DNA of 64,000 bases from an uncultured Acidimicrobiaceae bacterium. Lineage in GTDB: Bacteria; Actinomycetota; Acidimicrobiia; Acidimicrobiales; RAAP-2. Positions within the stretch are counted from its first letter, which is position 1. Each line of letters begins with the position of its first letter. The stretch spans positions 503,142 through 567,141 of the forward strand of contig CAWFXD010000002.1 of assembly GCA_963819695.1 (NCBI GenBank), given 5' to 3'. A program made the position numbers and the translations under genes. Below are positions 29,615 to 44,923 of the stretch, in pieces. The notes beneath the pieces are model-generated. The model saw only the letters and a program-made list of their open reading frames with translations. It made no database searches and was not told where the DNA came from.

Positions 29615-31189
29615 TCAGAGCAGCGACGGAATGATGGCCTCGATGACGCTGGGCCCGGGCGTGGCCAGGGCTTTGGCCAACTGGTCGCTGAATTCATCGG
29701 CGGTCTCGGCGCGGGCGGCGTAAAGGCCCATGCCGGTGGCCAGTTGGACGAAGTCGATGTCCGGTCGACCGAGGTCGAGCATGTCCCGTGCCCGGGGCCC
29801 GGGGGCTTCTGCCCCGACCCGGTCCAACTCCATGTTCAGGACCGCGTAGGAGTGGTTGTTGAGGAGCACGGTGGTTACGTCGAGGCTCTCACGGGCCATG
29901 GTCCACCACGCCTGCAGGGTGTACATGGCACTTCCGTCCGCCTCGAGGGCCACGACCCGCCTCCCCGGTGAGGCAACCGCGGCCCCGACCGCCACCGGGA
30001 GGCCCTGGCCGATGGCCCCACCCGTCAGGCAGAGCCAGTCATGCGGCGGAGCTCCGGCCGTGGAACCCGGGGCGAACAGGCCCGAGGTGTTCCCCTCGTC
30101 GGACACGATGGCCCCTTCGGGGAGGAGGGCCCCGAGGGCATCGCACACACTGGTGGCGGTGAGCGGACCGGTGGGGAGAGCCGGCGTCCGAGACTCCTGG
30201 CGGGGGGCATTCCCGCCGGAAACGTCGAGCAGAGCGCCGAGTGCCTCTACCGCAACATCGACATCGTCGGCCGGCCCGGCGGCAAGGTGAACCGTGCAGC
30301 CTTCGGGGACCAGGTCACTGGCCTTGCCGGGGTAGGCAAAGAAGGAGACGGGCGGCTTGGCATCCACCAGTACCAGGTGCCGGATACCGTCGAGTTGCAT
30401 GGCGGTGAACTCGGCGAGGTAGGCCAATCGCTCCACCGGTGGGCGTCCGGCGCCCCGTTCGAGTCGGGCCGGGAACGTCTCGGCCAGCAGTTTGGCCCCG
30501 GTGGCGGCGGAGATGTCCGCCACGGTGTCCAACGCGTTCCCCGAGCAGGCCCGTCCGCCGATCAGGATGGCCGACGGCTCTCCCGACCGCAACGCGTTGG
30601 CCGCGGCCTTCAGGTCGTCCTCGACCGGCGCGGCGCCATGGGCACCGACCGGTTGACCCGTCGCCGCGCGCCGGCCGGCCACTTGGCCGCCCTCCGACCA
30701 CGAAACATCGGCCGGCAGGATGAGGGTGGCCACGGAACCGGGGGGCCCCACCGCCGCGGTCAGGGCGTCGAGGGCATCGTCGCTCAGCCGGGCCGTGGAC
30801 TCCGACGTGCGCACGAACGACGACACGTTCCGGGCCACCGTCTCGATGTCCGATTGGAGCTGGGCGTCATACTTCCGGTGGTAGGTGGCATGGTCGCCCA
30901 CGATGTTCATCACCGGGCTGTTGGCCCGACGAGCGTTGTGCAGGTTGGCCAAACCGTTGCCGAGCCCCGGACCGAGGTGGAGAAGGGTGGCGGCGGGTCG
31001 TCCGGCCATCCGTGCATAGCCGTCGGCGGCACCGGTGGCCACCCCTTCGAACAGGGCCAGCACGCTGCGCATGCCGGGGACGTCGTCGAGGGCGGCGACG
31101 AAGTGCATCTCCGAGGTGCCGGGGTTCATGAAGCAGGTATCGACACCCTGCTCGACGAGGGTGCGGATCAGCGCCTGGGCTCCGTTCAT
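29615..31189 (-). CDS. Thiamine-diphosphate-dependent enzyme, acetolactate-synthase-large-subunit-like
   Basis: MNGAQALIRTLVEQGVDTCFMNPGTSEMHF..., GVATGAADGYAR and the TPP motif GGAIGQGLP...EADGSAMY...LLNN. Confidence 0.85.
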   Translation of the reverse strand: MNGAQALIRTLVEQGVDTCFMNPGTSEMHFVAALDDVPGMRSVLALFEGVATGAADGYARMAGRPAATLLHLGPGLGNGLANLHNARRANSPVMNIVGDHATYHRKYDAQLQSDIETVARNVSSFVRTSESTARLSDDALDALTAAVGPPGSVATLILPADVSWSEGGQVAGRRAATGQPVGAHGAAPVEDDLKAAANALRSGEPSAILIGGRACSGNALDTVADISAATGAKLLAETFPARLERGAGRPPVERLAYLAEFTAMQLDGIRHLVLVDAKPPVSFFAYPGKASDLVPEGCTVHLAAGPADDVDVAVEALGALLDVSGGNAPRQESRTPALPTGPLTATSVCDALGALLPEGAIVSDEGNTSGLFAPGSTAGAPPHDWLCLTGGAIGQGLPVAVGAAVASPGRRVVALEADGSAMYTLQAWWTMARESLDVTTVLLNNHSYAVLNMELDRVGAEAPGPRARDMLDLGRPDIDFVQLATGMGLYAARAETADEFSDQLAKALATPGPSVIEAIIPSLL

Positions 31190-32643
31190 CGGGGGTCTCC
31201 CGCCGCCGGTACCGGGTCGAAGATGGTGCCCGGATTGAGAATGCCGTCGGGGTCGAATGCCGCCTTGATCCGGCGCATGAGAGCGAGTTTGCCCGGGTCC
31301 TCGAGCTCGGCCAGGTAGGCCCGTTTCTCGGTGCCGATCCCGTGCTCGCCGGACACCGCACCGCCCAACGACACGCCGGCGGCGACGATGGCGTGCACGA
31401 GCTCACGACGGACTTCCGGGTCGGACTGCCACACGGAAAGGTGGACGTTGCCGTCCCCGGCATGGCCGCACCCCACCACCAGAGACGATGTCCGCGTCGA
31501 CAGGTCGTTCACGGTGTCCAGGTAGCCGGGGATCGAGGCGCGCGGCACGACCACGTCGACGATATCGTCGGCGCCCGCGGCCTTGGCGGCCCAGAAGGCC
31601 CGTTCACGTGCCTCCACCAGCTGGGTGCCGGCACTGGGCGGGAGCACGTAGACATCGAGCGCCCCAAGCCCGGCGAGCTGCTCGGCCAGTGTCTGGGTGT
31701 CCTCGTCGAGCCGGTCGGCACGATGGTTTTCGAGGACGATGACCAGGTAGGCCAGCGCCTGGTTCCGGATATCGTCGGGGATCCCCAGGTCGATGCCGGC
31801 ATTGGCGGTGATCCCGGCCATCGACACCAGGTCGATGTACTCCACCATCAGCGGCGCCACCCCGCTGGCCACCACGGGCGGCACCGAGGCGGCGATCCCG
31901 TAGAGAGTGGCGAAGGGAGCCAGCAGCGTGGCCTGGTGCTCGGGTCGGGGGTGCAGCCTGAGGGTCGCCCGGGTCACCAAGGCCAAGGTGCCCTCCGATC
32001 CGATGATCAATTGGGTGAGGTCGTAGCCGCTGGTCGACTTCACGAACTTGCCGCCGGCGTTGATGACCTCACCGGTGCCGAGCACGGCCTCGATGCCCAG
32101 GACGTGGTGGCGGGTCACCCCGTACTTGACCGCCCGCATCCCTCCGGCGTTGGTGGCGATGTTGCCGCCCAGACTGGCCGACTGCTCACCGGGGAACACC
32201 GGGTACAGCAGGGCGTAAGGGAGAAGGGCGGCGTCGAGGTCGGCCAGCGTCACCCCCGGCTCGACCACGGCCACGTGGTTGTCGGTGTCGATCTCGAGGA
32301 TGCGGTTCATCCGCTCGAACGACACCACCAGCCCGCCCTCCACCGGGGTGGACCCCCCGGACAGCCCTGTCCCTGAACCCCTGGGGGTGAGCGGTACCCC
32401 CTCGGACCTGGCCAGCGCCACGACGGCAGCCACTTCGGCGGTGGACGCGGGGCGCACCACCGCCAGCGGCCGGACCGGCGCGGCGGTGAGCGCCTCGTCG
32501 TGGGTGTCGTCCTCGTTCACGCCGACCCCGGTATCGACGTTGGCGACACCGACGATCTCGACCAACCGATCCTCCACGGTTGGCTCGGATATCCCCCCAG
32601 GGGTGGTGGCGACGACCGCCCGTGCCGATGACGATCGCGGCAT
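31186..32643 (-). CDS. FAD-linked oxidase (GlcD / D-lactate dehydrogenase-like)
   Basis: FAD_binding_4-type PRGSGTGLSGGS and the C-terminal GEHGIGTEKRAYL...KAAFDPDGILNPG. The stop overlaps the start of the TPP enzyme gene. Confidence 0.85.
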   Translation of the reverse strand: MPRSSSARAVVATTPGGISEPTVEDRLVEIVGVANVDTGVGVNEDDTHDEALTAAPVRPLAVVRPASTAEVAAVVALARSEGVPLTPRGSGTGLSGGSTPVEGGLVVSFERMNRILEIDTDNHVAVVEPGVTLADLDAALLPYALLYPVFPGEQSASLGGNIATNAGGMRAVKYGVTRHHVLGIEAVLGTGEVINAGGKFVKSTSGYDLTQLIIGSEGTLALVTRATLRLHPRPEHQATLLAPFATLYGIAASVPPVVASGVAPLMVEYIDLVSMAGITANAGIDLGIPDDIRNQALAYLVIVLENHRADRLDEDTQTLAEQLAGLGALDVYVLPPSAGTQLVEARERAFWAAKAAGADDIVDVVVPRASIPGYLDTVNDLSTRTSSLVVGCGHAGDGNVHLSVWQSDPEVRRELVHAIVAAGVSLGGAVSGEHGIGTEKRAYLAELEDPGKLALMRRIKAAFDPDGILNPGTIFDPVPAAGDPR

Positions 32644-33062
32644 TCACACCCTCCCTTTCGACCTAACGACGACAGATTAACGCTTGTTTCAAGGCAGCTC
32701 ACCAGGCTTGACGGCAGGCTGGGTTACGACATAAGGGTCAGACCCGTCATCGTGCTCAAGTCCGGCTGGAAATCCCCGACCAGACGACGGACCGGCGCCG
32801 CCCCCACCCTCGCCGCGTACGGGGGCCCGGTACCCGGCTGTCAATGGCGGCAAGTCACCCTCGGTTGCCACGGTCCCTCTCCGGACGTCGAGGTCAAAGG
32901 AGCAGGCCCGATACCACGCACAGCGTTATTTCGTGCAAAAAAGCCCACGAAAAAGGGACTATTGTCACAAATTTTCGGCAATTCTCTCATGGTCACTTCC
33001 CGGGGCGACGAAGGCAATGGAGCAGAGAACGCTCGATGGCTCGTTTACGAAAGGGAATTGCC

Positions 33063-33773
33063 ATGAAGATCGTCGGTCATATCAGGAGCAACAAGCGGGG
33101 ATTGCTTGTGTCCGTCGCCGCGGTGGTTGCCCTGGCGACGACCGCGGCGTTCACACTCGGCGCCTTCAGCGCCACCATCGTCAACAGTACCAGCAACTTC
33201 TCGTCGGCCACCATCCAGCTTCAGGAGGGTAACGGCGTGACCACCTGCTATTCGACAGGCACTGGTACCGGCGGCTCAGTCACCGCCGCCAACTCGAATG
33301 CGGGCTGCGGCATCAACGTGCTGACCGGCACCCTCGGGCAGGTCCCGGGGGGCACCGCACTCACCAGCACGATCACCCTGACCAATGTCGGGAACCATGC
33401 CGCTGCGGCGGCGACTCTGGCGGTGGGCGCCTGCACGGCGGCCGCCGCCTCTGACTCGAACCTCTATGTCGGCGCCGACCTGGCCGGCAATGCCTTCTGC
33501 GGCAAGGTTGACGTCACCATCGCCAACACCACGACCGGTGCCACAGACAAGTGCGTCTACCCGACCCAGGCCGCCGTCTGCCCCGGGCTATCGAATACCT
33601 ACAATCTGACCACGCTGGCGACGGCGGCGACGTTCAATACCACGCCGATGTCAGCCCTGGCCCCGGCCGGGACGGCCACCTATGTGGTGACGGTCCAGCT
33701 CGATGCCGCGGCCACCAACGCCGACCAGGGCCTGACCGCGACGGTGCCCTTCACGTGGAGCATCAGCCAGTAA
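33063..33773 (+). CDS. Secreted TasA/camelysin-like protein with SipW-cognate-type signal peptide (P1, candidate major fibre subunit)
   Basis: AAGGGA RBS 7 nt before ATG 33063. MKIVGHIRSNKRG + helix LLVSVAAVVALATTAAFTLG + AFSATIVNSTSNFSSATIQL. The body is Thr/Ala/Gly/Asn-rich with 6 Cys. It lies two genes upstream of a SipW-type peptidase. An alternative ATG is at 33036. Confidence 0.7.
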   Translation: MKIVGHIRSNKRGLLVSVAAVVALATTAAFTLGAFSATIVNSTSNFSSATIQLQEGNGVTTCYSTGTGTGGSVTAANSNAGCGINVLTGTLGQVPGGTALTSTITLTNVGNHAAAAATLAVGACTAAAASDSNLYVGADLAGNAFCGKVDVTIANTTTGATDKCVYPTQAAVCPGLSNTYNLTTLATAATFNTTPMSALAPAGTATYVVTVQLDAAATNADQGLTATVPFTWSISQ

Positions 33774-33799
33774 TCCTGGAGCATCCGCCAGTAACCCAC

Positions 33800-33823
33800 G
33801 AGGCCAGCTGTGCCCGTGGCCTC
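33800..33823 (+). terminator. Hairpin between P1 and P2 (possible attenuating terminator)
   Basis: GAGGCCA-gctgtgcccg-TGGCCTC: a 7-bp perfect stem and 10-nt loop, 27 nt after the P1 stop, with no U-tract. Confidence 0.3.
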
Positions 33824-33873
33824 TCCGGGCCCGGGCGCAGCCGACCTCGGCGAGCTTCGAGAGGACGAGGACC

Positions 33874-36018
33874 ATGCGCGTAGTCCCGTTTGTTTCTCGA
33901 CATGGCGCGCACAAGGCCCTCGGGATCGTGGCGACGGTCGGAGTTTTGCTCCTCGTCCTGGGCACCGCGGCGGTGGCGGCGGGATTCGGCGCACACCTGG
34001 TCGGCAACACCACCAAATTCTCCTCGGCGACCATGCAATTAGAGGGGACGACGGCCGCCGTCAACTGCTACTCGACGGGGACCGGCTCAGGCGGCTCGGT
34101 GAACTCCAATTCGACCAACTGCGCGGCCGGATCCCCGCTTCCATCAGGGTCGCTTTCCAGTTCCGCGTCGTCGAACGCCACGACCACCTTGACGTCTGTA
34201 GGAAACGCGAACGCCTCGGCGGCGACGGTGAGCTCGCCGACCTGCGGGGTGGCCCAGCTCGCCGATGCCGGCACCAATGTCCAGTGGAGCGGCTCGGGAT
34301 CCAACACCGCGCTGGTCTTCAACGGCATCACCTACCAGGCGACGGGGCCGATGACCGGTGGCCAGGCAATCACCACCGACGGATCGACGGGATGGGCGGA
34401 GACGACCGCCTCCTACGTCAATCCGGAGACCTTCACCGTGCTCGTGTGGTTCAAGACGTCGTCTCCGTCCGGGGCCCTCATCGGGTTCGGGAGCCAGACG
34501 AACCCGGTCACCTCGACGCCGGCAACTCACGACCGCCAGCTCTGGGTGGACTCGAGCGGGAAGCTGGTCTGGGGTCTTTATAACGGCGGGCTCGACCAGG
34601 TCACCAGCTCCTCGACCGTGGACGGCGGATCGTGGGAGTTCGCCGCCGCGACGGTCGGGAGCGCCGGGCAACTGCTCTACGTGAACGGCGCATCAGTCGG
34701 CACCGGCACCACCACCAACACAGCCGCCCAGAGTTTCACCGGATGGTGGAGCTTGGGTTACGCCTCGCTGGCCGGCTGGAACGATATCCCCACCAACTAC
34801 TACTTCAACGGCTCGATGGCTCAAGTGGCGGTGATCCCTTCGCAACTGACCGGGTCACAGATCTCCACCCTCTACGCCGATCGCAGCTCACTGAGTACCT
34901 ATACGTCTGCCGTCAACGCCTTCAACCCCGTCGACAGCTGGGGGCTCAGCGACTCGGGCACGGTCCCTTACCTTGGCTCGGTCCCTGGAGCGACGGCGTC
35001 GACGACGCTCGCCGATGCCTCCGGCAACGGCAACACTGGCAGCGCACAAGGCGGGGTCACCCTGCAGTCAGCCGGTCCTACCACGCTCGGCGGCAACGCC
35101 GTCTTCCTCGACGGCTCTTCGGGCTACGTGGAGACCGCCAATTCCTACTCGAACCCCGAGGGGTTCTCCGCCGTCGCCTGGTTCAAAGCATCGGGTACCT
35201 CGGGCGGCACCGTCCTTGGTTTCACTACGTCGCAGACGAACGCAGCCCCCAGCAGCTGGGATCGTACCCTCTGGCTCGACAACTCCGGCAAGCTGGTGTG
35301 GGGGGTTTATCCGGGGTCGACGAGCGAGGTTACCTCGCCCCTGGCCTACAACGATGGAAACTGGCACATGGCGGTGGTCGAGATCGGCTCGTCGGGACAG
35401 CAACTGTGGGTGGACGGCACCCGGGTCGCATTCAACGCCTCGGTGACCACCGCGCAGAACTATACGGGTTACTGGCACCTCGGCTGGGGTTACGAAAGCT
35501 CCTGGCCTGACGCCCCGACCAGCGGCTACCTGTCCGGATCGTTGGCCCAGGTGGCGATCGTCCCTACCCAGCTCTCGGCATCGAGCATCTCCAACCTGTA
35601 CACGGACACTTCCGTGGGCGACTTGACCGTGGACATGGGCGCGCTCTCGCCCATCTCCTACTGGCCGCTCGGTGATTCGTCGTCGAATGTCTGCGGCACC
35701 ACTGAGCTCACGGTGCAGCAGACGGTGGGGTCCACCAACACCTGCATCTTCCCGGCCGCCACGGGCACCTGCGCCGCCCCGAGCTCGGCCAACCTGATCA
35801 CCGGAGTCGGCGCCCGCACGATCACCGTGCCCGATTTCGGGGACGACCGTGGCGATCAAGATCACCCTCGAGTTGAGCTCGGCTTCAGGTACCGCGGTCA
35901 AGGGCCTTCACCTCCTCCCGGACGTGTCCTTCACCACGACCAAGGGTTCGACGCTTTGGTCCGCCGAGATCGCCTACGCCAGCGCGTCGGCATGGCTATG
36001 ACCCGGGGAAGGCCATGA
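33874..36018 (+). CDS. Large secreted P1 paralogue carrying two LamG/concanavalin-A-like lectin domains (P2); 3' end frameshifted, true stop probably TGA 35999-36001
   Basis: Leader HKALGIVATVGVLLLVLGTAAVAAGFGAHLVGNTTKFSSATMQL resembles that of P1. It has two duplicated modules (..TFTVLVWFKTSS..DRQLWVDSSGKLVWGLY.. and ..FSAVAWFKASG..DRTLWLDNSGKLVWGVY..). After 35842 the protein-like sequence continues in frame 2 (TTVAIKITLELSSASGTAVKGLHLLPDVSFTTTKGSTLWSAEIAY). Confidence 0.75.
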   Translation: MRVVPFVSRHGAHKALGIVATVGVLLLVLGTAAVAAGFGAHLVGNTTKFSSATMQLEGTTAAVNCYSTGTGSGGSVNSNSTNCAAGSPLPSGSLSSSASSNATTTLTSVGNANASAATVSSPTCGVAQLADAGTNVQWSGSGSNTALVFNGITYQATGPMTGGQAITTDGSTGWAETTASYVNPETFTVLVWFKTSSPSGALIGFGSQTNPVTSTPATHDRQLWVDSSGKLVWGLYNGGLDQVTSSSTVDGGSWEFAAATVGSAGQLLYVNGASVGTGTTTNTAAQSFTGWWSLGYASLAGWNDIPTNYYFNGSMAQVAVIPSQLTGSQISTLYADRSSLSTYTSAVNAFNPVDSWGLSDSGTVPYLGSVPGATASTTLADASGNGNTGSAQGGVTLQSAGPTTLGGNAVFLDGSSGYVETANSYSNPEGFSAVAWFKASGTSGGTVLGFTTSQTNAAPSSWDRTLWLDNSGKLVWGVYPGSTSEVTSPLAYNDGNWHMAVVEIGSSGQQLWVDGTRVAFNASVTTAQNYTGYWHLGWGYESSWPDAPTSGYLSGSLAQVAIVPTQLSASSISNLYTDTSVGDLTVDMGALSPISYWPLGDSSSNVCGTTELTVQQTVGSTNTCIFPAATGTCAAPSSANLITGVGARTITVPDFGDDRGDQDHPRVELGFRYRGQGPSPPPGRVLHHDQGFDALVRRDRLRQRVGMAMTRGRP

Positions 36019-37268
36019 CCGCCATCGTGGTGCCGCCGGCACGGTACTCCGTGACGGAGGGTAGTGAGTCCAGGCGTCGGCTGACCCATCGGGATAGAAA
36101 TGCACCGGAGGCGACCAAGGGCCAGCGCCGGCCCACCGGTGGAGGCGTCCTCTCGCTGCTGGCCATTGCTGCCGTGGTTCTCTCGGTGGCGGGGGTGCTG
36201 GGGTGGCAACTCACCGGCGGAAAGCTCGTGGTGATGGAGACCCCTTCCATGTGCCCGACGGTGTGCGTCGGGTCGCTGGTGGCCGACCGGCCGCTGGTGG
36301 GTCCGGTCCACGTCGGAGAGCTCATCACCTTCTACCCTCCGAACACCCGGGCCGAGACCTACACCCACGAGATCTCCCACATCTTCCCCAATGGGATGAT
36401 CCAGACCCGAGGGGTGGGAAATCCACAGCACGATCCCTGGCTCATCACCCGCTCGGACATCGTGGGCCGTACTGCCTTCAGCATTTGGGGGCTCGGGTGG
36501 GTGTACAAGGCGCTCCCCCTGCTGGCCGTCGGCGTGATGGCCTGGGTACTGGCGCGCCCCAGCGTCGCGAGGCGGTCACGGAGGGCTTGGGACCTGGGCT
36601 GGGCAACGATCCTGGTGATCCTCCCGATCTGGATGCTCCGTCCGCTGGTACGAGCAACGGTCATCACCTCGACTGTTGACAAGGCCCACCCGCACTGGGC
36701 AAGTGTCAGCGTGGTCAACACGGGCATCCTTCCCGTCTCCTTTCACATTCCCGGCGGGACCACCGCTGCGCCTATCGCGTCGACCGGCCGGGCCGTGCTC
36801 TCCGGCCCGGCGTCCGCCAACCGGCCCCTGGTGGTGCACCAGACGGCGTTTCTCCCGTGGTGGGGCTGGGCCATCGCCGCCCTGTTGGTGCTCTCGCCGC
36901 TCATCGGCTATCTCTGGCATGCCTGGCGGGACAGCGGACCGGTGCCGGAGCTGGCCACCGACCCGGACGACTCGATCGCCTTGGACCCGCCCTTGGCGGG
37001 TTTGGTGGTCTCGGGGTCGGGGACTCCGGACCGGCCATCGGATCTGATCTCGCACTGCTGCGTCGTTGGCGCCCCGGCACGAACCCCCGTTAGCGTTGGG
37101 GCGCGGCCGGGTGTCTACCCCGGCCGCCGAGGCGATCGCACAACCGTCCCCGTACCCGTCCCCGTCTGCAACGAGTTCGCGAATTTGAAGGCAAGAGACC
37201 AGTTGAGAGAGCGCACGAGCGGGTCGCGGTCGGGGTCGGATTGTCCCGCATCAACCCGTGGCCGCTGA
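36015..37268 (+). CDS. SipW-type (ER/archaeal, S26B-like) signal peptidase I, atypically long with extra TM/beta-rich C-terminal region
   Basis: N-terminal TM (VLSLLAIAAVVLSVAGVLGW), Ser box METPSMCPTV, GELITFYPP, His box YTHEISHI and a degenerate GDNN box (RGVGNPQHDPW). More TM helices follow. The 3' end is doubtful (see hairpin 37103-37127). Confidence 0.65.
   Translation: MTAIVVPPARYSVTEGSESRRRLTHRDRNAPEATKGQRRPTGGGVLSLLAIAAVVLSVAGVLGWQLTGGKLVVMETPSMCPTVCVGSLVADRPLVGPVHVGELITFYPPNTRAETYTHEISHIFPNGMIQTRGVGNPQHDPWLITRSDIVGRTAFSIWGLGWVYKALPLLAVGVMAWVLARPSVARRSRRAWDLGWATILVILPIWMLRPLVRATVITSTVDKAHPHWASVSVVNTGILPVSFHIPGGTTAAPIASTGRAVLSGPASANRPLVVHQTAFLPWWGWAIAALLVLSPLIGYLWHAWRDSGPVPELATDPDDSIALDPPLAGLVVSGSGTPDRPSDLISHCCVVGAPARTPVSVGARPGVYPGRRGDRTTVPVPVPVCNEFANLKARDQLRERTSGSRSGSDCPASTRGR
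37103..37127 (+). terminator. Strong GC hairpin (terminator-like) inside the nominal 3' tail of the peptidase ORF
   Basis: GCGGCCGGG-tgtctac-CCCGGCCGC: a 9-bp perfect stem and 7-nt loop. It is followed by about 130 nt of lower-GC sequence before the ABC gene start. Confidence 0.4.
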
Positions 37269-38058
37269 CCCCGTCATCCGGGTGACCGGGCTCAGCGTGG
37301 TTCGGGACGGGACCGCGTTGATCGAGGACATCAACTGGGTCGTGAATGCCGGCGAACGGTGGGCGTTGCTCGGCCCCAATGGCTCGGGGAAGACCACGTT
37401 GCTACGGGTGGTGGGCTCGGCCCTCTGGCCCACCCGAGGCGTGGTGGAGATCTTGGGTGAACGCCTGGGTCACGTCGACATGCGCATCCTGAGGCAACGG
37501 ATCGCGACGGTCAGCGCGTCGATCAGTAGATCGCTCCGACCTCAGTTGTCCGCCCTCGAGGTGGTGCTGACCGGCCGCTATGCCGTGCTGGAGACGTGGT
37601 GGCACGACTTCACGGCTGGCGATCGAGCCGAGGCCGATCGGCTGTTGCGGTTGGCGGGATTTGGGGGTGACTCGTTCGACGACCGGTCATTCGGGTTGTT
37701 GTCCGAAGGAGAGCGCCAACAGGTGCTGCTGGCGAGGGCGTTGATGGGCCAACCCGAACTCCTGTTGATGGACGAGCCGGCGGCAGGGCTCGACCTCGGG
37801 GCACGAGAGCGCTTGGTCCGGCGCCTGTCGGTGCTGGCCGATGACCCGTCGGTCCCGGCGTTGGTGCTGGTGACCCACCATGTGGAGGAGATCCCGCCGG
37901 GGATGACCCATGCCGCGCTCCTCCGCGAGGGCCGGATGGTGGCGGCCGGACCGGTGAACCAGGTCCTCACCGATCGGGCCGTGTCCGATGCCTTCGGCGT
38001 CGAGGTGGTCGTATCGCAGTCTGAGGGCCGCTGGTCGGCTCGGGCGATGCCCCGGTAA
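37258..38058 (+). CDS. ABC transporter ATP-binding protein (stand-alone ATPase, no permease adjacent)
   Basis: Walker A GPNGSGKTTLL, Q-loop, signature LSEGERQQV and Walker B LLLMDEPAAGLD. Confidence 0.85.
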   Translation: MAADPVIRVTGLSVVRDGTALIEDINWVVNAGERWALLGPNGSGKTTLLRVVGSALWPTRGVVEILGERLGHVDMRILRQRIATVSASISRSLRPQLSALEVVLTGRYAVLETWWHDFTAGDRAEADRLLRLAGFGGDSFDDRSFGLLSEGERQQVLLARALMGQPELLLMDEPAAGLDLGARERLVRRLSVLADDPSVPALVLVTHHVEEIPPGMTHAALLREGRMVAAGPVNQVLTDRAVSDAFGVEVVVSQSEGRWSARAMPR

Positions 38059-38169: not shown

Positions 38170-38625
38170 CTAAGAAGCTTTGGCTCCCACGTCGTCAGAT
38201 GCCGCGAGGGCAGCAAGAAGTTCGGCATCGCGTTCGTAACTGAGCAGGGCCAAGGCATCGGCGACATCGAGCCACCGCAACTCGTCCACCTCATCGTTGA
38301 GCGTGAATCCCTCATCCTTCTCGACGGTCATCTTCCAGTAGGCGACCACCTTCTGGCGGTCCTTGCGGTCGCGGTACTCCGTGTGGCCGAGGAACCGGCC
38401 CAATCGACAGATGAGCCCGGTCTCCTCGTGGACCTCGCGCAAGGCGCATTGCTCCAACGTCTCACCGTCTTCGAGTTTGCCCTTCGGAAAGGTCCAGTCC
38501 GCTCGCGCCGGGCGGTGGACGATTACCACTTCCAATCGGCCGCGAATCCTCCGCACCACCAACCCGCCGCCCGCCCTGACGATCTCGCTCTGACTCGAGC
38601 GAGTTGCTGCGGCTATTTCCCACAT
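38170..38625 (-). CDS. NUDIX hydrolase
   Basis: Nudix box GKLEDGETLEQCALREVHEETGL. Confidence 0.85.
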   Translation of the reverse strand: MWEIAAATRSSQSEIVRAGGGLVVRRIRGRLEVVIVHRPARADWTFPKGKLEDGETLEQCALREVHEETGLICRLGRFLGHTEYRDRKDRQKVVAYWKMTVEKDEGFTLNDEVDELRWLDVADALALLSYERDAELLAALAASDDVGAKAS

Positions 38626-38728
38626 TTGCGAGACTACCGCCGTGGACCGTCAATTTGGGGCATTTGTCGAACGATGACTGGAAGACCCTCAGAACGCGTC
38701 CCGGTATGGGCGCTGTAGCCTTTGGGCC

Positions 38729-40735
38729 ATGGCGGACCGAGCGCTCGAAGAGGCCGCGGCGGCCGGCGACGACGTCGAGGTGGAGTGGCAGTTCGACGCG
38801 CTCGATCTGCGGCCGGTCGAGCGGTGGATGGCCGCACTTCCCGGAACCCGGTTGGGGGGGGACCCGGGGACCCTTTCCCTCACCGCTCTGGCCAAGCCGG
38901 CCGTCCGCCAGGTCGACCGCTACCTCGATACCGAGGATTGGCGGATCGGGCGGGCCGGGCTCGTCCTCCGCACCCGTCGGAAGGGCCGACGTGACGAGGG
39001 CACCCTGAAGGACTCGCGCCCAGCCGACGCCGGGGGCCTTCGCCGCCGGCTCGAGGTGACCGAGTCCCTGCCGCCGGAAGGAATCGGCGCCCTCGGACCC
39101 GGCGGCCCGGTAGGTCGTCGCCTGCACGCCGTCGTCGGTAATCGTCCTCTCCACCAGGTACTCGAGATCCGCACCCGCCGCCGGGCATTCTCGCTGCGGG
39201 TAGACGGCGAAGATGTGGCCGAGGTCGCGCTGGACGAGACCACCATCGTCGGCGATTCGGGAGCCAGGCCGGCCCACCTCCGGCGGGTCGAAGTCGAGGT
39301 CGTCCACCGTTGGGTAGCCGCCCTCGAGCCGGTGGTACGCGACCTTCGCGATGCCTGTGGGCTGCGCCCGGCCACTCTCTCGAAATTCGAGGCGGGGCTC
39401 CTGGCCCTGGGCATCACCATTCCTGGACTGCCCGATCTTGGGCCGCAAGCGGTCTCTCCCGAGTCTTCGATGGGAGAACTCGCCTACGCGGTGCTGCGGC
39501 GCCATCTCGGGGTGCTCCTCGCCCGGGAGTCCGGAACCCGGCTCGGTGAGGACATCGAGGAACTCCACGACATGCGGGTGGCTACCCGGCGTCTCCGCGC
39601 CGCCATCGACGTGTTCGTCGCCGTCCTGCCGGTTCGGATCCAGGGTCTCCGCAAAGAGCTCGGCTGGTTGGCCGCGGCGTTGGGCGAGGTGCGTGACCTC
39701 GACGTCCAACTCGAGCACATGGACAACATGGGCGAGTGGAGTATCGCCTGGGCAACCTCGGAGGCGGCCGAGGATCCCCTCGTCCATCTGCGTCAACTGC
39801 TCGTCGATCAGCGAGTCGCGGCTCGCCGGCGTCTCCTGGAAGCGCTCGACTCCGCCCGCTACCAGCGACTGCTGAAGGGGTTCATTTCGCTTGTGGTCCA
39901 GGGGCCCTCGCGGCGATTCGCCGCCGCCGGGGTGCCGGCGGTGATCGCGATGCCCGATCTGGTGGCACAGCGGCACGGCAGCGTGCTGAAGGGAGCGAAG
40001 CGAGCCCGGAGGAGCGGGGTCGCGACCGACTTTCACCGGCTGCGCATCCGGTGCAAGCGGCTCCGTTACTCCCTCGAGTTCAGCGCCGGGCTCTACGGGG
40101 GTGGCACCGACCGTTTTGTTCGTCGGATGGCCCGCCTGCAAGATGCCCTGGGCCTGATGCAGGATGCCGAGGTGGCTACCGAGCAATTGTTGGCCATCAC
40201 GGCCGAACACGGATCGGACCTGCCCCCGTTGACGATTTTTGCCATGGGAAGCGTGGCCGAGCGCTACCGGGACGAGGCCGCCGACCTGCTGGCCTCGATG
40301 TCCCGGCGTTTGAAAGTGCTCGACGGTAGCGAGTGGGCCGCGCTGGAAGAGCTCATGGCTGCCTGTCACGAAGACGCCCTGGCCGCGGCTCCGGCCCCCC
40401 GCCCGAGAACCCGGCCGATCCCGTCGGTCCCGGCCGCCGGAGCCGGACCGGCGAGTGCGCCAACCCCGGTGGTGGCCTCGACGGGGACGGAGGAAGGGGA
40501 TGACCCGCCGGGGACTCCGGACCGGGTTGCCGCCGTCGCCCTGGCGGTGGTTGCCGGCGATCCGGAGACGGCGCCGACGGATGAGCCAGCCGAATCGCCG
40601 GGCCGGGATGAACAACCCCACGACCGTTCCCCGGCGAACGCCGGACTGGTCGCCTATCAGGAGCCACCGCCGGCGCCTCCCCACGTCGACCCCGAGGGAA
40701 CCCTCGACCCGATGGGCAGCGTCGGCGAGGTCTGA
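38729..40735 (+). CDS. CYTH + CHAD domain protein with ~150-aa Pro/Ala-rich C-terminal tail
   Basis: N-terminal EVEWQF (the ExExK-like start of the CYTH triphosphate tunnel). The CHAD helices carry repeated H/R motifs (IEELHDMRVATRRLRAAIDVF, FHRLRIRCKRLRYSLEF). Confidence 0.85.
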   Translation: MADRALEEAAAAGDDVEVEWQFDALDLRPVERWMAALPGTRLGGDPGTLSLTALAKPAVRQVDRYLDTEDWRIGRAGLVLRTRRKGRRDEGTLKDSRPADAGGLRRRLEVTESLPPEGIGALGPGGPVGRRLHAVVGNRPLHQVLEIRTRRRAFSLRVDGEDVAEVALDETTIVGDSGARPAHLRRVEVEVVHRWVAALEPVVRDLRDACGLRPATLSKFEAGLLALGITIPGLPDLGPQAVSPESSMGELAYAVLRRHLGVLLARESGTRLGEDIEELHDMRVATRRLRAAIDVFVAVLPVRIQGLRKELGWLAAALGEVRDLDVQLEHMDNMGEWSIAWATSEAAEDPLVHLRQLLVDQRVAARRRLLEALDSARYQRLLKGFISLVVQGPSRRFAAAGVPAVIAMPDLVAQRHGSVLKGAKRARRSGVATDFHRLRIRCKRLRYSLEFSAGLYGGGTDRFVRRMARLQDALGLMQDAEVATEQLLAITAEHGSDLPPLTIFAMGSVAERYRDEAADLLASMSRRLKVLDGSEWAALEELMAACHEDALAAAPAPRPRTRPIPSVPAAGAGPASAPTPVVASTGTEEGDDPPGTPDRVAAVALAVVAGDPETAPTDEPAESPGRDEQPHDRSPANAGLVAYQEPPPAPPHVDPEGTLDPMGSVGEV

Positions 40736-40787
40736 CCCGAACGCGGCACTTGATCGACTGGAGGATCGAGGCACGCGCGACCGCGAG

Positions 40788-41459
40788 CTAGCGGACCAGT
40801 GAGACCACCAGCAGCACTTGGGCGACGTGATAGGTGATGTGGACCAACAATGTGCCCTGACGGATCGGGCGGACGAACCGATCGGTGGCCAGCAGGGTAT
40901 CGGACGCCAGAAAACAGACGGCACCGATTGCGGCCGAGGTTCGGCCGACATTGGTGGCCAACACCACCATGGTCAGGATGGCCACCATGTACAGGCAGAC
41001 CGGGCCGACCAGGGCACCCTGTCCGTGCCGGAGGATCGATCGGAGGATGATGGTGGCGGGCAAAGCTTCGACCAGCAAGACGAGCCCGGATGCCAGCGCC
41101 AGCCCCGGCGATGAGAACGCGAATGGCCGGATGGAGGAGGAGGGACCGGGCTGAAGCAGCCCCACGATGAAGAAGGCGTGGCCAGCCAGGAACGCCGCCA
41201 GCCCGGGGATGAACAGATTTCGGGGGACCATCAACAAGACGTCCCCGACCAGGCAGAACGCCAGGGCGACCACGAACCAGCCTCTTCGGCCAACCGAGAC
41301 GGAATAAGCCGTGGGAATGAGGGCGGCGGCCGCCACCAGCAGAGCCAGGACCGCCGGCTTGGCGGCATACTGAAGCCGGTCATTGGCGGTCCCCACGGCC
41401 AGCCAATCGGCCAGGGCGGCCACCCCGGCCACGGCAATGAGGCTCCAGACCGTGGTCAT
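40788..41459 (-). CDS. YhhN/lysoplasmalogenase-family membrane protein
   Basis: Polytopic membrane protein starting MTTVWSLIAVAGVAALADWLAV, with AKPAVLALL, CLVGDVLLM and FLASDTLLA motifs. The ORF-track start at 41624 adds 55 non-membrane residues. Confidence 0.65.
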   Translation of the reverse strand: MTTVWSLIAVAGVAALADWLAVGTANDRLQYAAKPAVLALLVAAAALIPTAYSVSVGRRGWFVVALAFCLVGDVLLMVPRNLFIPGLAAFLAGHAFFIVGLLQPGPSSSIRPFAFSSPGLALASGLVLLVEALPATIILRSILRHGQGALVGPVCLYMVAILTMVVLATNVGRTSAAIGAVCFLASDTLLATDRFVRPIRQGTLLVHITYHVAQVLLVVSLVR

Positions 41460-41675
41460 CCGCAGGACGATACCGGGTGACCACCCGCCTCGACCTGGAC
41501 TAATCAGAAACCGTTTGAGCGCGGGGGGCGGACGGTGTACAACAGTCCCAACACAAACGGAGGAGGCCGTGGCGGACACCCAGGTGTTCCATGTCGGCAT
41601 CGTCATTCTCTGACCATCCACCACTGCGGAAAAGCCTGTCGTTAGGGTTTTTCAGGAAGAAGGTAGGTCGAGGAG

Positions 41676-42386
41676 TTGACGCTCATGATCGTTGTGGTGA
41701 TCCTCGTAGTGGCATGGCTGGTGATTCTTGGTCCCTCGATGTTCCGGCGACGCTCCGAACACGGGGGTGGAGTCAACTCCATCTCACACTTTCACCATCA
41801 GCTTCGGGTGCTGGAACAGTCCAGGGGGGAGCCGATCGTCTTCCCGGCGTTCCGCCTCCAGTCGGTTCCCGGCCACGGCACCCCGGCCCAGTCGAATTCC
41901 CCTGACAGCTCGGTGAGGCCGGTGCTTACCGTGGTGGGCGCCAAGGAACTGCCACGGCCGGCGCTGGCCTTCTTGGGCGAAGCGGCCACTCCGCGGGAGC
42001 CGGAACCCACCTACCGGCAGGCGTACCCCGAACGCATCACCACGCCTCGGTTGGCCAACCCCGAAGCCCGCGTCCTGGCCCGGCGCCGGAGACGTGACAC
42101 GTTGACGGTGCTGGCGCTGGTGTTCACCCTCACCTTGGTGATCGGCAGTATCCCGGGAGCACGGCCCGCCTGGGTGGTCACCGCCATCGCCGGCGTAGCC
42201 CTCGGCGCTTACGTGGCGATGCTGGTCCACATGCAGACAGTCATGGCGGAAGGCGAACGCAAGCTTCACTACCTTCGTCCCACCGTGGGGCAGGGCGGTA
42301 CTCGAGACGAGTATCTGGCGATGGCGGGAATGCAGGATCAGGACGGCCGGTACGGACACCCGGCTGGCCGCGCCGCTTCCCGTTGA
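41676..42386 (+). CDS. Membrane protein, possibly divisome SepX/GlpR-like
   Basis: N-terminal TM (MIVVVILVVAWLVILGPSMF) + RRRSE, then a later RRRRRD followed by two TM helices (TLTVLALVFTLTLVIG, WVVTAIAGVALGAYVAMLV). The family call is from remembered architecture only. An alternative ATG is at 41685. Confidence 0.4.
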   Translation: MTLMIVVVILVVAWLVILGPSMFRRRSEHGGGVNSISHFHHQLRVLEQSRGEPIVFPAFRLQSVPGHGTPAQSNSPDSSVRPVLTVVGAKELPRPALAFLGEAATPREPEPTYRQAYPERITTPRLANPEARVLARRRRRDTLTVLALVFTLTLVIGSIPGARPAWVVTAIAGVALGAYVAMLVHMQTVMAEGERKLHYLRPTVGQGGTRDEYLAMAGMQDQDGRYGHPAGRAASR

Positions 42387-44089
42387 CCGAATCGCTTCCT
42401 TCGGCATTCGATCCCACTTCATCCAGTCTGGCCCCAGCATCCGACACCCGCCTGGCTGACCAGCTGGCGATGGTCGGTCCGTCATTACGGGAAGAGCTGG
42501 CCGGCGCCCACCAGGCCCGGGAGGTCTCGTTGCGGGCCTGCCGGGACACCATCCGGCAGTGCAGCTTGGCCATTCGGGCGGTTCACCGGCTCTTGCCGGA
42601 CCAGTTCCGGGAACACGCCGCGGCCGCCGAAGCCTCGCTTCGAATCGCCCAGCAGGCCTTGGAGCCGTTCCCGAGGCTGGCGGCCGCCGGCTTTCTGCAC
42701 GATGCCGAAAAGGAGTATGCCGAGGCGCGGTTGACGGCCGCACTGGTGGCCGGGTCCCCGCTTCCGGACCACCGCGCCCTGGGTGTCGCCATCCCCGCCT
42801 GGCTCAACGGGCTGGCGGAAGCGGCTTCCGAGCTCCGCCGGCATCTTCTCGACCGCATCCGCGACGGCGACCTGGCCCGGGGGTCGGCGCTCCTGGACGC
42901 CATGGGCGACTGCTACGACGTCCTGGTGACGGTCGACTTTCCCGACGCCATCACCGGGGGGCTCCGCCGAGCCACTGATGCCCTCCGGGCGGTTCTCGAG
43001 CGCAGCCGGTCGGACGTGACCACCACCACCCTGCAGGTGCAGTTGCAGCGGGCCATCGAGGGAATGTCGAAGGTGCCGCTGGATCAAGCCTCCGCCACCG
43101 TGAAGCCCGGCTGGATGGATGTAGCCGCGGCCGCGGCGACAGCCGCCGCCGCCGGACTGGGCTCCTTGCCTGGTGGCGACCAATCCGGTGGAGATGGCGA
43201 AGGGGCAATTCTGTGGGAGATCCAGACGGTGGTCGCCTCGAAGGTGACCATTCGCCGGGGATCGGTGGCCTCGGGTGTTGACGATTCCTCGGCCCCCGAA
43301 GAAGTCGGTGACGGGGACCTCGAGGCACCGGCGGTCGCACTCCCAGTGGCCCAACCCCTTCCGGACATACCGGCGTCGTCGGTCGTACCGGCGGCGCCGG
43401 TCGTGCCGACTGCGGACGCGGCACGAGTTGGCGAGGTGGCACCGGAATCGAGCGAGGCGAGGGAGGCGGCACCGGTGCCACCTCAGGAGGTGCCCCACCT
43501 GCTGGATCGACCGAACGATAGCCCGCCCGCCCGCCATCGACCGTTCGGCAACCTTTGGCGGGCGCTGGGCTTTGTCATCTTTGCCATCGTCGGAACCGCC
43601 ATGGTGGCGGTGGCCGTGGCCACCCTGGCGCTCCATCTCTCCATCCGGCCGGTTCTGTCACCGAGCATGGAACCGACCTACGGGCCGGGCTGGGCCATCA
43701 TCACTCGGCCGGTGTCCACCTCGACGTTGAAGGTCGGCGACATCATCGTCTTCACCCCACCTGGCCAATCCGTTCAATATGCCCACCGAATTATTTCGCT
43801 CACCGGACCAGCAGACCATCCGGTCGTGATGACCAAGGGCGACAACAATCCCACCCCGGACGCTTGGCACGCCCGCCTGGCTTCAGACACCACACCCGAG
43901 GTAATAGCCGAAGTCCCCTTGGTTGGCAGTGTCCTCAACGGCCTGGGAAGTGGCGTCACCCGGGCGGCGGTGATCGCGTTCGCGGGCATCATCGTCTGCG
44001 GGGTCGGGATGATCTGGATAATCCGATCAGGTCGTCCACCGAGACGGCCAGACCCGGCGTCGATCCCCGGAGACCGGTCGGCGCAGTAG
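42383..44089 (+). CDS. Continuous ORF: translin-family-like N-terminal domain + low-complexity linker + TM + SipW-type signal peptidase I
   Basis: N-terminal helical region (...AIRAVHRLLPDQ...FLHDAEKEYAEARL...WLNGLAEAASELRRHLLDRIRDGDLARG...DCYDVLVTVDFPDAITGGLRRATDALRAVLERSRSD). The C-terminus has LSPSMEPTY (Ser box), VGDIIVFTPP, YAHRII (His box) and MTKGDNNPTPD (GDNN box), flanked by TM helices. An internal SD (GAGGGAGG) + GTG at 43475 could express the peptidase alone. Confidence 0.65.
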   Translation: MTESLPSAFDPTSSSLAPASDTRLADQLAMVGPSLREELAGAHQAREVSLRACRDTIRQCSLAIRAVHRLLPDQFREHAAAAEASLRIAQQALEPFPRLAAAGFLHDAEKEYAEARLTAALVAGSPLPDHRALGVAIPAWLNGLAEAASELRRHLLDRIRDGDLARGSALLDAMGDCYDVLVTVDFPDAITGGLRRATDALRAVLERSRSDVTTTTLQVQLQRAIEGMSKVPLDQASATVKPGWMDVAAAAATAAAAGLGSLPGGDQSGGDGEGAILWEIQTVVASKVTIRRGSVASGVDDSSAPEEVGDGDLEAPAVALPVAQPLPDIPASSVVPAAPVVPTADAARVGEVAPESSEAREAAPVPPQEVPHLLDRPNDSPPARHRPFGNLWRALGFVIFAIVGTAMVAVAVATLALHLSIRPVLSPSMEPTYGPGWAIITRPVSTSTLKVGDIIVFTPPGQSVQYAHRIISLTGPADHPVVMTKGDNNPTPDAWHARLASDTTPEVIAEVPLVGSVLNGLGSGVTRAAVIAFAGIIVCGVGMIWIIRSGRPPRRPDPASIPGDRSAQ

Positions 44090-44226
44090 GAATCGGCCTC
44101 GGGACGATGGATTCCACGCCTGGGGAGCCAAAAAAATAGAACTGGTTCTCGCGTTGGCTCATGTACTCCTCCGAACTTGCCGATGGTAGGGCACAAAGTC
44201 ACATCATCGGGGAACGGGAGACGTTT

Positions 44227-44913: not shown

Positions 44914-44923
44914 ATACGCCTCG

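Follow-up and report, generated by a model that had tools for sequence, protein, structure and literature searches.

Three co-directional genes, here called P1, P2, and P3, follow a divergent intergenic region within the window, by which we mean the whole 64,000-nucleotide stretch of DNA that was analyzed (Table 1). A minus-strand FAD-oxidase gene (31186-32643) lies on the other side of this region. The original prediction had described an intergenic region of lower GC content, with A-tracts, leading into three genes, and this layout is what we find: the GC content is 0.61, versus 0.65-0.71 in the flanks, and the A-tracts are located at ~32936-32960, upstream of P1. A ribosome-binding site, AAAGGGAA, stands 7 nt ahead of the P1 ATG, and in a 90 % relative (L001), a stop codon shuts the upstream in-frame ATG of P1; based on these two observations, we take 33063 as the start of the gene. 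A search of the 420-bp upstream region against Rfam matched no riboswitch or other known RNA, and neither a sigma-70-type promoter consensus nor a meaningful terminator was found there. The region aligns with L001 only, which is too close a relative to be informative. The host is an uncultured soil or peat actinobacterium.

Table 1. Positions in the window of the three genes, their parts, and the upstream region.
Feature	Position	Strand	Basis or remark
Divergent intergenic region	32644..33062	.	Presumed P1 promoter and 5' leader
P1, predicted major subunit, 236 aa	33063..33773	+	Divergent Cys-rich TasA/camelysin superfamily member
P1 signal peptide, residues 1-33	33063..33161	+	Hydrophobic segment, family conservation, TasA alignment
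Predicted N-terminal donor strand, mature P1 residues 34-56, AFSATIVNSTSNFSSATIQLQEG	33162..33230	+	Function inferred
P2, P1 paralogue with two LamG domains, predicted minor subunit	33874..36001	+	Frame interrupted at 35834
P2 LamG domain 1 (Laminin_G_3)	34309..34893	+	Approximate limits; best stretch residues 169-331
P2 LamG domain 2 (Laminin_G_3 / Laminin_G_2)	34996..35613	+	Approximate limits; Laminin_G_2 residues 481-561
Extra A causing the P2 frameshift	35834..35834	+	blastn vs L054
P3, 417-aa membrane protein, archaeal/ER-type (S26B) signal peptidase I	36015..37268	+	TIGR02228, SEC11A profile match
P3 catalytic domain, residues 65-158	36207..36488	+	Ser78 (PSMCPT), His118 (YTHEIS), Asp140 (HDPW)
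P3 extension, absent from SipW	36489..37265	+	Hydropathy scan, family alignment

P1 has a basic N terminus, a single hydrophobic segment (residues 14-32 in a hydropathy scan), the motif GAFSATIVNSTSNFSSATIQL close to its leader, and six cysteines (at 62, 82, 124, 146, 164, and 173), all as originally described. The six cysteines are invariant and probably form three disulfides that would stabilize the subunit outside the cell. By alignment to TasA, whose mature form begins at residue 28 (PMC9674648), we place the predicted cleavage of P1 at T-L-G/A-F-S-A, analogous to T-W-A/A-F-N-D in TasA. T31, L32, G33, and F35 are invariant in the close-family alignment of P1 (A1), and, by eye, the signal motif aligns with that of TasA as T-x-[AG]/[AG]-F ... 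F-x-S-[AG]-T-[IL]-x-L. The model of SipW-dependent-type signal peptides, TIGR04088, is matched by 13 of 79 P1 relatives at E<0.01 (best, 3.7e-5); searched directly, P1 and P2 give no match to it at E<=0.1. P1 does not belong to the actinobacterial family TIGR04089 (exp_by_SipW_III), to which the original prediction had alluded: P1, P2, and the proteins of a second locus in the window (described below) are all without a match, and only 2 of the 79 P1 relatives match weakly (E 0.005). The stretch that follows the predicted cleavage site, residues 34-56, ranks with the best-conserved parts of the family, with F35, F46, S48, Q52, and L53 invariant; in a PDB profile search, it aligns with IKSKDATFASGTLDLSAK of TasA, and its F...I...F spacing resembles that of the TasA donor-strand residues F29, I32, and F39 (PMC9674648). 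No LPXTG, SLH, or C-terminal helix anchor is evident in P1 or P2.

Is P1, then, a member of the TasA superfamily? Pfam and NCBIfam scans of P1 itself matched no model, the curated TasA, camelysin, and SipW-signal models included, and PF12389 (Peptidase_M73) and NF046066 (the TasA model) returned nothing even at E<=0.1. Thus, the family assignment expected of P1 is not recovered by direct Pfam or NCBIfam matches, but it does emerge from profile homology to a PF12389-positive protein: the P1 family profile (A3, 79 members) aligns by hhalign (94.5 %, E 8e-8, 175 columns) with the window protein at 44161-44913, which scores 23.7 bits against PF12389 (gathering score, 22.5). Divergent P1 relatives themselves match PF12389 (16/79; best E, 1.4e-7) and NF046066 (9/79 at E<0.01). 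In the PDB profile search with the P1 family, four of the top five matches, all weak, are AbpX or TasA entries, and the alignment covers the N-terminal GTLxL, the PG...N.G, and the C-terminal N..QG motifs. The final P1 profile and the AlphaFold2 model were built from a deeper alignment of 50 %-cluster representatives; the shallow close-family profile A1 found no match among PDB sequences at E<=10, and a first AlphaFold2 run on the shallow alignment was poor (pLDDT 61.5), with a marginal TasA match.

The final AlphaFold2 model (pLDDT 87.4, pTM 0.77) has the TasA fiber, 8aur_A, as its best Foldseek match and the sole one with E<=0.001 (E 2.1e-6, probability 1.00), with a TM score that is moderate (0.50/0.50), an rmsd of 5.8 over 245 columns, and an identity of ~14 %. 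The next matches are the Pyrobaculum bundling pilus 7ueg (probability 0.90), the Sulfolobus thread 7pnb, and chaperone-usher pilins, such that both of the structures against which a comparison had been proposed, TasA and the Pyrobaculum pilus, are among the best. These neighbors beyond TasA are donor-strand filaments. The family hhalign result, the matches of relatives to PF12389 and TIGR04088, and the predicted structure agree with each other, and together they support the view that P1 belongs to the TasA superfamily, though no curated model catches P1 itself.

P2 carries the motif GFGAHLVGNTTKFSSATMQL, and because it shares 36 % identity with P1 over its first 130 residues (BLASTP E 2e-12), the leader-proximal motif predicted to be common to the two proteins reflects homology and not chance. 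With the insert removed, P2 aligns end to end with P1 (83/236 identical); five of the cysteines fall at matching positions, with the sixth shifted by two residues. The LamG insertion occupies one loop, between the third and fourth conserved cysteines, and the decoration is confirmed by Pfam PF13385 (103.1 bits versus a gathering score of 27.6, E 2e-29, in two stretches). Of the solved structures, the S-layer domain-containing protein 4qvs_A comes closest in sequence to the first LamG domain (E 1.6e-6). LamG-positive ORFs in the P2 cluster have one (9 ORFs), two (26), or three (3) such domains, some of the single-domain ORFs being fragments. No TapA-type match for P2 was found in Pfam or NCBIfam, P2 being a paralogue of P1 instead; we therefore regard any likeness to TapA as a functional analogy only, via the common donor-like N terminus.

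Judged by its sequence, P3 is a divergent archaeal/ER-type (S26B) signal peptidase. It has the predicted Ser and His boxes (PSMCPT and YTHEISH), and the Lys box is absent. Its match to TIGR02228 (39.7 bits, E 4e-10) falls under the cutoff of 51.85, its match to the SipW model NF046067 amounts to 14.1 bits versus a cutoff of 190, and Pfam Peptidase_S26 does not match. As a single sequence, P3 gave only chance matches in the PDB, and the family profile was needed to reach human SEC11A (7p2p_A, E 1.4e-8); in the family alignment (33 members), TIGR02228 is matched by all 33 at E<0.01 and the SipW model by 18. S78, M79, H118, and D140 are invariant in this alignment (A2, 33 sequences), and S78, H118, and D140 align with the SM, the HR, and the last D of GDNNAVDD (the GDNNxxxD motif) of SEC11A, which bears out the expectation of an alignable Ser/His dyad and adds the Asp. 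Of the proposal that P3 is an ER/archaeal, SipW-like enzyme, the class and the catalytic triad stand, but the score stays below the TIGR02228 cutoff and the protein is not SipW-sized. Prokaryotic type I signal peptidases typically have two helices (bioRxiv 10.64898/2026.01.04.697558), whereas P3 has 417 aa, four hydrophobic segments (44-62, 162-184, 194-217, and 279-297), and an extra conserved domain. The last three of these segments flank a beta-rich segment of ~65 residues in the extension; P3 is conserved in the family to about residue 305, and the poorly conserved tail (residues ~304-417) is probably cytoplasmic. The extension matched nothing in Pfam at E<=10. DUF5305, the signal peptidase-accessory module of AbpX/Tafi loci, was considered as its identity and rejected, with no match even at that threshold.

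The original prediction held that the three genes would be co-conserved among relatives, and indeed, of 49 genome loci, at least 37 have P1, P2, and P3 together, permuted gene orders included. The linkage holds down to 33-45 % P1 identity and extends over several orders, the carriers being Acidimicrobiales, Solirubrobacterales, Frankiaceae, and Dormibacteria MAGs. P3 homologues thus share the SipW-like trait of being encoded beside their predicted TasA-like substrates. When all three proteins are compared with one set of relatives, identities are 66-74 % for P1, 53-65 % for P2, and 54-67 % for P3, and the strongest conservation of P1 fits a subunit constrained by polymer interfaces. No fourth conserved gene was found in the 49 loci; the only recurrent genes belong to generic families of paralogues (SDR, LuxR-type regulator, MFS), each in at most 10 loci. 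The ABC ATPase gene that overlaps the P3 stop was rejected as a module member, being syntenic in the closest relatives only. Solo P1 paralogue loci in these relatives are without P3, but a full triad stands elsewhere in the genome (L007 and L008 derive from one MAG). The P1 clade occurs widely among uncultured Acidimicrobiia and Thermoleophilia of bogs, fens, and soils; the homologues found are all annotated “hypothetical protein”, and the carriers are all uncultured MAGs.

The window also holds a second locus (42383-45550), where a signal peptidase of archaeal type, which scores 72.7 bits against TIGR02228 and so passes the cutoff, adjoins a PF12389-positive, TasA-like secreted protein homologous to the P1 family. 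This locus differs in gene order and has no LamG paralogue, and its peptidase ORF has a large N-terminal PRK14562-like domain. BLASTP between P1 and the TasA-like subunit of the second locus detected no similarity. A 208-aa protein of the second locus was considered as a relative of the P1 family, and no relation was seen.

Based on the evidence described above, we judge with moderate confidence that the three genes form a module for a secreted protein fiber of the TasA type, matured by P3 and with P2 as its minor subunit. The earlier reading of a fiber/adhesin locus is largely sustained, the attempts made to refute it having come out in its favor. Weighing against it are the absence of curated-model matches for P1, the low identity and moderate TM score of P1 relative to TasA, the below-cutoff score and atypical four-helix architecture of P3, the frameshift in P2, and the lack of an evident anchor in P1 or P2. 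In the mechanism that we propose, P1 and P2 would be exported by what their sequences suggest are Sec-type signal peptides of the TasA/SipW class, and membrane-bound P3 would cut these at approximately G33/A34 of P1 and A33/G34 of P2. The enzyme class of P3 and its intact catalytic residues are established by the alignments; its pairing with P1 and P2 as substrates is suggested by the conserved gene linkage. Mature P1 jelly-rolls would then join head to tail, with residues ~34-56 of one subunit entering the beta-sandwich of the one that follows, as they do in the TasA fibers of B. subtilis, an exchange to which the fold and the motif conservation point. We posit that P2, with the same donor-strand motif, the same six-Cys jelly-roll, and a different C terminus, would be the minor subunit and, by analogy to TapA, would give the first donor strand and thus sit at one end of the fiber. 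Its LamG domains (one to three in homologues), displayed in a surface loop, would bind glycan, which may be a polymer of the cell's own wall (an anchor) or part of an external surface (an adhesin). We speculate more tentatively still, as a possibility that we would not bet on, that the fibers are disulfide stapled as well as donor-strand exchanged, that a pilin-paralogue end subunit displays the lectin domains, and that the accessory module of the signal peptidase is a platform for assembly or anchoring. If this is true, the module would be a self-contained, three-gene fiber and adhesin machine, unlike TapA/SipW/TasA and unlike sortase pili.

Could P1 and P2 instead have the TasA fold and not polymerize? 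They would then be monomeric matrix, coat, or glycan-binding proteins, still matured by P3. P2 in that case would act independently, as a carbohydrate-binding protein of the LamG type. A stable, self-complemented monomer is known for TasA as well (PMC9674648), the AlphaFold2 monomer model of P1 is confident without a partner, the LamG domains of P2 resemble those of an S-layer domain-containing protein, and polymerization of P1 is itself inferred. We nonetheless consider this reading unlikely, since the segment directly after the signal peptide is highly conserved and common to P1 and P2, the structural neighbors beyond TasA are nearly all subunits of donor-strand filaments, and P1 is more strongly conserved than either P2 or P3.

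It is improbable that P3 has a general or housekeeping role as a type I signal peptidase and stands beside P1 and P2 by chance. Although the substrate pairing is based on gene linkage only, and the size and topology of P3 are unlike those of SipW, its homologues accompany P1 and P2 across several orders even when the genes are permuted; the second archaeal-type peptidase in the window adjoins the second TasA-like gene, as dedicated enzymes would; and where a solo P1 paralogue locus is without P3, the genome has the full triad elsewhere.

As first read, the P2 ORF (33874-36018) has an out-of-frame tail; its predicted start and motif are sound, but its annotated 3' end is wrong owing to a 1-nt insertion, which appears in a blastn comparison of the window with a 96 % identical relative (L054) as CCCGATTTCG versus CCCG-TTTCG. 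GC3 switches frame near 35800, the +1 frame beyond the shift encodes a C terminus homologous to that of intact P2 relatives, and L054, without the extra A, has an intact P2 gene of 709 aa (P2 is intact in most other relatives, too); we therefore place the real end of P2 at 36001, which gives a corrected protein of 708 aa with its stop codon at 35999-36001, 13 nt ahead of the P3 start. Is the module perhaps decaying in this genome? Were the frameshift real, the minor subunit would be without its native C terminus and its function lost, and this insertion, along with several frame breaks in P2 of L001, is what speaks for decay. We think decay quite unlikely: in L054, P2 is whole but P1 is split, 10 gap openings separate it from the window over 4.8 kb of DNA that is mostly coding and otherwise 96 % identical, and L001, like several other relatives, comes from an “MFD” MAG assembly, probably long-read, whose contigs measure 0.5-2 Mb, a pattern that points to assembly indel errors. 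GC3, moreover, remains high in the shifted frame as far as the homologous stop. That P1 is a camelysin-like secreted metalloprotease, as its remote homology to PF12389, a family named after camelysin (Peptidase_M73), would have it, is highly improbable, as mature P1 has one His (H112), which the family does not conserve, and lacks a motif of the HExxH type, and its structural match is the fiber form of TasA.

Fibers of the TasA type provide a major scaffold for Bacillus biofilms and for a number of surface structures in archaea. The P1 clade extends the TasA superfamily to proteins missed by current Pfam and NCBIfam models, and the locus offers a compact, three-gene target for understanding how uncultured, abundant actinobacteria attach to surfaces or build matrix. 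Two features invite structural study: a pilin with loop-inserted lectin domains and a signal peptidase to which an extra module is fused. The module reveals no new principle. Earlier work has already described TasA homologues from Actinobacteriota, as well as loci of the TasA superfamily that combine a dedicated signal peptidase I with minor or tip subunits (PMC9245690; bioRxiv 10.64898/2026.01.04.697558), and the novelty is therefore smaller than the original prediction implied; a characterized actinobacterial example was not found in the open-access literature.

How does the locus compare with known systems? Among archaeal and bacterial filaments of the TasA superfamily, AbpA bundling pili (7UEG), AbpX (9SJ2), Sulfolobus 0406 threads (7PNB), and Tafi pili are donor-strand complemented and built of TasA-like jelly-rolls. 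Their loci often encode a signal peptidase I (TIGR02228), minor subunits resembling pilins, and tip proteins of variable structure; the signal peptidase in some cases carries a fused accessory module, and AbpX has a predicted disulfide (PMC9245690; bioRxiv 10.64898/2026.01.04.697558). AbpA, AbpX, and the 0406 thread are among the structural or profile matches of P1, weaker than TasA, and a LamG insertion within the pilin fold, as seen in P2, is unmentioned in these two reports. The B. subtilis tapA-sipW-tasA operon (8AUR; PMC9674648) likewise consists of three genes, for a major jelly-roll protein, a minor protein, and a dedicated peptidase. The TasA donor strand and the donor-like N terminus of TapA have been described (PMC9674648); as P2 has the N-terminal motif of P1, so the minor protein there has that of the major subunit, and the peptidase is, like P3, a Ser/His enzyme of archaeal/ER type. 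TasA and P1 have in common the signal c-region T-x-[AG]/[AG]-F, a GTLxL-type strand, PG...N.G, and the C-terminal N..QG. Unlike TasA, however, P1 is missed by PF12389 and the TasA model and has six invariant cysteines; unlike TapA, P2 is paralogous to the major subunit over its full length and has LamG domains inserted in a loop; unlike SipW, P3 is predicted to have four helices, along with an additional beta-rich domain and a long tail; and the hosts are uncultured Acidimicrobiia and Thermoleophilia rather than Bacillota. The locus probably represents an uncharacterized branch of a known type of extracellular fiber system.

Taken together, our results show that a TasA-fold secreted protein (P1), a paralogue of it bearing LamG domains (P2), and a signal peptidase of archaeal type whose catalytic residues are intact (P3) are inherited together. 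The window is GC rich (about 0.65 to 0.72), its nearest relatives being MAGs labeled uncultured Acidimicrobiaceae or Acidimicrobiales, and the arrangement originally described, a low-GC intergenic region with A-tracts followed by three co-directional genes, was confirmed. Scanning one genome per species yielded 49 loci, most of them from bogs, fens, and soils, in Acidimicrobiaceae and Acidimicrobiales MAGs and in more distant Solirubrobacterales, Frankiaceae, Jatrophihabitans, and Dormibacteria MAGs. All three genes were found together in 37 of these (tblastn, conservative thresholds), as expected of a co-conserved neighborhood; the other loci were mostly cut by contig ends or held sub-threshold P2 matches. 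The commonest order is P1-P2-P3, with P3-P1-P2, P1-P3-P1'-P2, and P2-P1-P3 also seen; P1 is the best conserved of the three, and no further gene was consistently linked to the module among the 49 loci. Five of the loci represent solo or tandem additional P1 copies, which recall the multiple major-subunit genes of pilus systems; a full triad (L007) and a solo P1 (L008) occur in one and the same MAG. Additional P1 copies, either apart from any P2 or P3 or in tandem, occur in L008, L022, L027, L030, and L033, with tandem copies in L018 and L030.

Features of the two TasA-type loci and their surroundings (L054, closest relative; L001, 90 % relative)
Feature	Coordinates	Strand	Length	Remarks
FAD-linked oxidase gene	31186-32643	minus
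Divergent intergenic region	between FAD-linked oxidase gene and P1		419 bp	GC 0.61 (lower); A-tracts
P1	33063-33773		236 aa	co-directional with P2, P3
P2	start 33874			co-directional with P1, P3
P3	36015-37268		417 aa	co-directional with P1, P2
ABC-transporter ATPase gene	37258-38058			start 11 nt ahead of P3 stop codon
NUDIX gene	38170-38625	minus		between the loci; syntenic with L001, L054
CYTH/CHAD gene	38729-40735			between the loci; syntenic with L001, L054
YhhN-family gene	40788-41624	minus		between the loci; syntenic with L001, L054
SepX/GlpR-like gene	41676-42386			second locus
ORF	42383-44089		568 aa	second locus
Protein	44161-44913		250 aa	second locus; PF12389-positive
Protein	44924-45550		208 aa	second locus; secreted-looking, without family assignment

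The ABC-transporter ATPase gene probably has no connection with the fibre genes, because its synteny is confined to the closest relatives (L001 and L054) and it is absent from the module in the more distant L002. The CHAD gene casts an antisense shadow, typical of high-GC DNA, in the form of an 829-aa minus-strand ORF (38462-40951).

P1 has all the features first read from it, namely, a basic N terminus, a single hydrophobic segment (residues 14 to 32), the stretch GAFSATIVNSTSNFSSATIQL, and six cysteines. The claim that it belongs to the TasA/camelysin family is borne out through divergent relatives and the family profile, but P1 alone matched no Pfam or NCBIfam model, and all 258 of its close homologues are unannotated. 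A profile search of the whole library with the P1 family retrieved only 312 cluster representatives (E<=0.001). Among 79 full-length divergent representatives (25 to 51 % identity to P1), Pfam Peptidase_M73 was matched by 16, the SipW-dependent-type signal peptide TIGR04088 by 13, and the TasA model by 9. TIGR04089, the actinobacterial SipW-cognate signal-peptide family alluded to originally, was matched by just 2 of the 79 and not by P1, which is not a member of it. The 79-sequence profile also matched the Peptidase_M73-positive protein of the second locus (probability 94.5 %, E 8e-8), and AbpX or TasA entries were four of its top five matches among PDB sequences, all weak. Both the TasA and AbpX alignments brought the N-terminal GTLxL strand and the PG...N.G motif into line, and the TasA alignment did so for the C-terminal N..QG...F.[FW]...Q motif as well. 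The six cysteines never vary in the close family; over the full set of 79 sequences, this holds for three of them.

Structure prediction points the same way. A shallow alignment gave a poor AlphaFold2 model of P1 (pLDDT 61.5), and the 79-sequence alignment gave a better one (pLDDT 87.4, pTM 0.77), for which the cryo-EM TasA fibre 8aur_A was the sole Foldseek match at E<=0.001 (E 2.1e-6, probability 1.00, TM 0.50). Next in rank, in keeping with the comparison originally suggested, came the Pyrobaculum bundling pilus, the Sulfolobus 0406 thread, and chaperone-usher pilins, which are all donor-strand filaments, along with some GH123 beta-sandwich domains. P1 is thus very probably a divergent member of the TasA superfamily. 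Mature P1 (33162-33770) contains only two lysines (K148 and K163) and no arginine and would therefore be largely missed by standard tryptic proteomics, which may partly explain why the family has escaped notice in metaproteomes.

P2 begins like P1 (36 % identity over the first 130 residues, E 2e-12), as its shared leader-proximal motif had indicated, and the expected LamG decoration consists of two Laminin_G_3 domains (Pfam, E 2e-29). With residues ~141 to 598 removed, P2 aligns with P1 end to end (83/236 identities), five cysteines falling at the same positions and the sixth two residues off; the LamG insert separates the third cysteine from the fourth. The C-terminal strand region is unlike that of P1 and lacks the NADQG...FTWSISQ motif. 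P2 is a P1 paralogue with inserted LamG domains, a region nearest by sequence to 4qvs, an S-layer domain-containing protein. Across the related loci, LamG matches in the P2 cluster came as one domain in 9 ORFs (some of them fragments), two domains in 26 ORFs, and three domains in 3 ORFs.

The final ~60 codons of the P2 ORF as read (to 36018) appear non-coding. At about 35800, GC3 switches to another frame, which reads ...SGTTVAIKITLELSSASGTAVKGLHLLPDVSFTTTKGSTLWSAEIAYASASAWL up to a stop codon at 35999-36001 and is homologous to the C terminus of intact relatives. L054, 96.2 % identical in nucleotide sequence over 4.8 kb, has one A fewer at window position 35834 and an intact P2 of 709 aa ending 14 nt ahead of its P3. 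An assembly indel is considered a more likely cause of the break than is a pseudogene. The same 4.8 kb of mostly coding DNA holds 10 gap openings; P1 is split in L054 (L054 3048-3757), and P2 is broken several times in L001 (L001 10800-12900). Such single-base indels suggest residual errors in these large-contig MAG assemblies, and gene calls in the window therefore need caution for frameshifts.

P3 carries PSMCPT and YTHEISH and, as predicted for an S26B/SipW-like enzyme, has Ser and His boxes and no Lys-box equivalent. The archaeal-type signal peptidase model TIGR02228 is matched at E<0.01 by 33 of 33 aligned family members, and the SipW model by 18; P3 itself scores 39.7 bits on TIGR02228, below the cut-off of 51.85, and has no Pfam match. 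Ser78, Met79, His118, and Asp140 are invariant in the family, whose profile aligned with human SEC11A (7p2p_A, E 1.4e-8) so that these residues fell on its SM, HR, and GDNNxxxD motifs, which hold the Ser56/His96/Asp122 triad. P3 differs from SipW in having four hydrophobic segments, a conserved segment of ~65 residues between the third and fourth, and a tail of about 110 residues that is poorly conserved. No similarity was detectable in this extension to DUF5305, an SPase accessory module that has been described from other loci of the TasA superfamily (bioRxiv 10.64898/2026.01.04.697558). P3 is, on sequence grounds, an S26B-type signal peptidase with an extension, and it is likely a dedicated maturase. 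In one P3 homologue (P0171, 431 aa), the peptidase part runs into mid-P1-like sequence (…LDQVPGGIALTTTLTFTNVG…GSDEHGLSGKIDVSVGNSTAGATDRYVFP…); this is either a downstream P1-like gene joined by a frame error or a genuine fusion.

The 568-aa ORF of the second locus matches PRK14562 "HAD superfamily" models at residues 30 to 229 (235 bits) and TIGR02228 at residues 398 to 538 (72.7 bits). Since long peptidase ORFs are also called in L054 (545 aa) and L001 (434 aa), this peptidase may really be fused to a cytoplasmic domain.

We propose a model in which P3 removes the signal peptides of P1 and P2. Cleavage of P1 would fall at G33/A34, because T31-L32-G33/A34-F35 mirrors the T-W-A/A-F of TasA, whose mature form starts at residue 28 (PMC9674648). 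Mature P1 would then polymerize as its N-terminal strand enters the next subunit: the TasA donor strand spans residues 28 to 38, with key contacts at F29, I32, and F39 (PMC9674648), and P1 has F35, I39/V40, and F46 in similar register. The donor-strand sequence is also present in P2, as it is in Bacillus TapA, which is thought to give the first strand (PMC9674648); P2 would thus be a natural nucleator or terminal subunit, its LamG domains serving either to anchor the fibre at the cell wall or to bind foreign surfaces. On balance, we favor this model as a whole.

In line with the original statement, no characterized actinobacterial example was found in text searches of open-access papers. The kind of system is nonetheless already known, since PF12389 homologues are on record for Actinobacteriota (PMC9245690) and other work has described loci of the TasA superfamily that combine a TIGR02228 peptidase with pilin-like minor subunits, variable tip proteins, and accessory modules fused to the SPase (bioRxiv 10.64898/2026.01.04.697558). 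What is new is a P1 subfamily unseen by current curated models, with its six-cysteine signature; a minor subunit built by LamG insertion inside a pilin fold; a predicted four-helix peptidase with an extra domain of no assigned family; and the occurrence of the system in uncultured Acidimicrobiia and Thermoleophilia.
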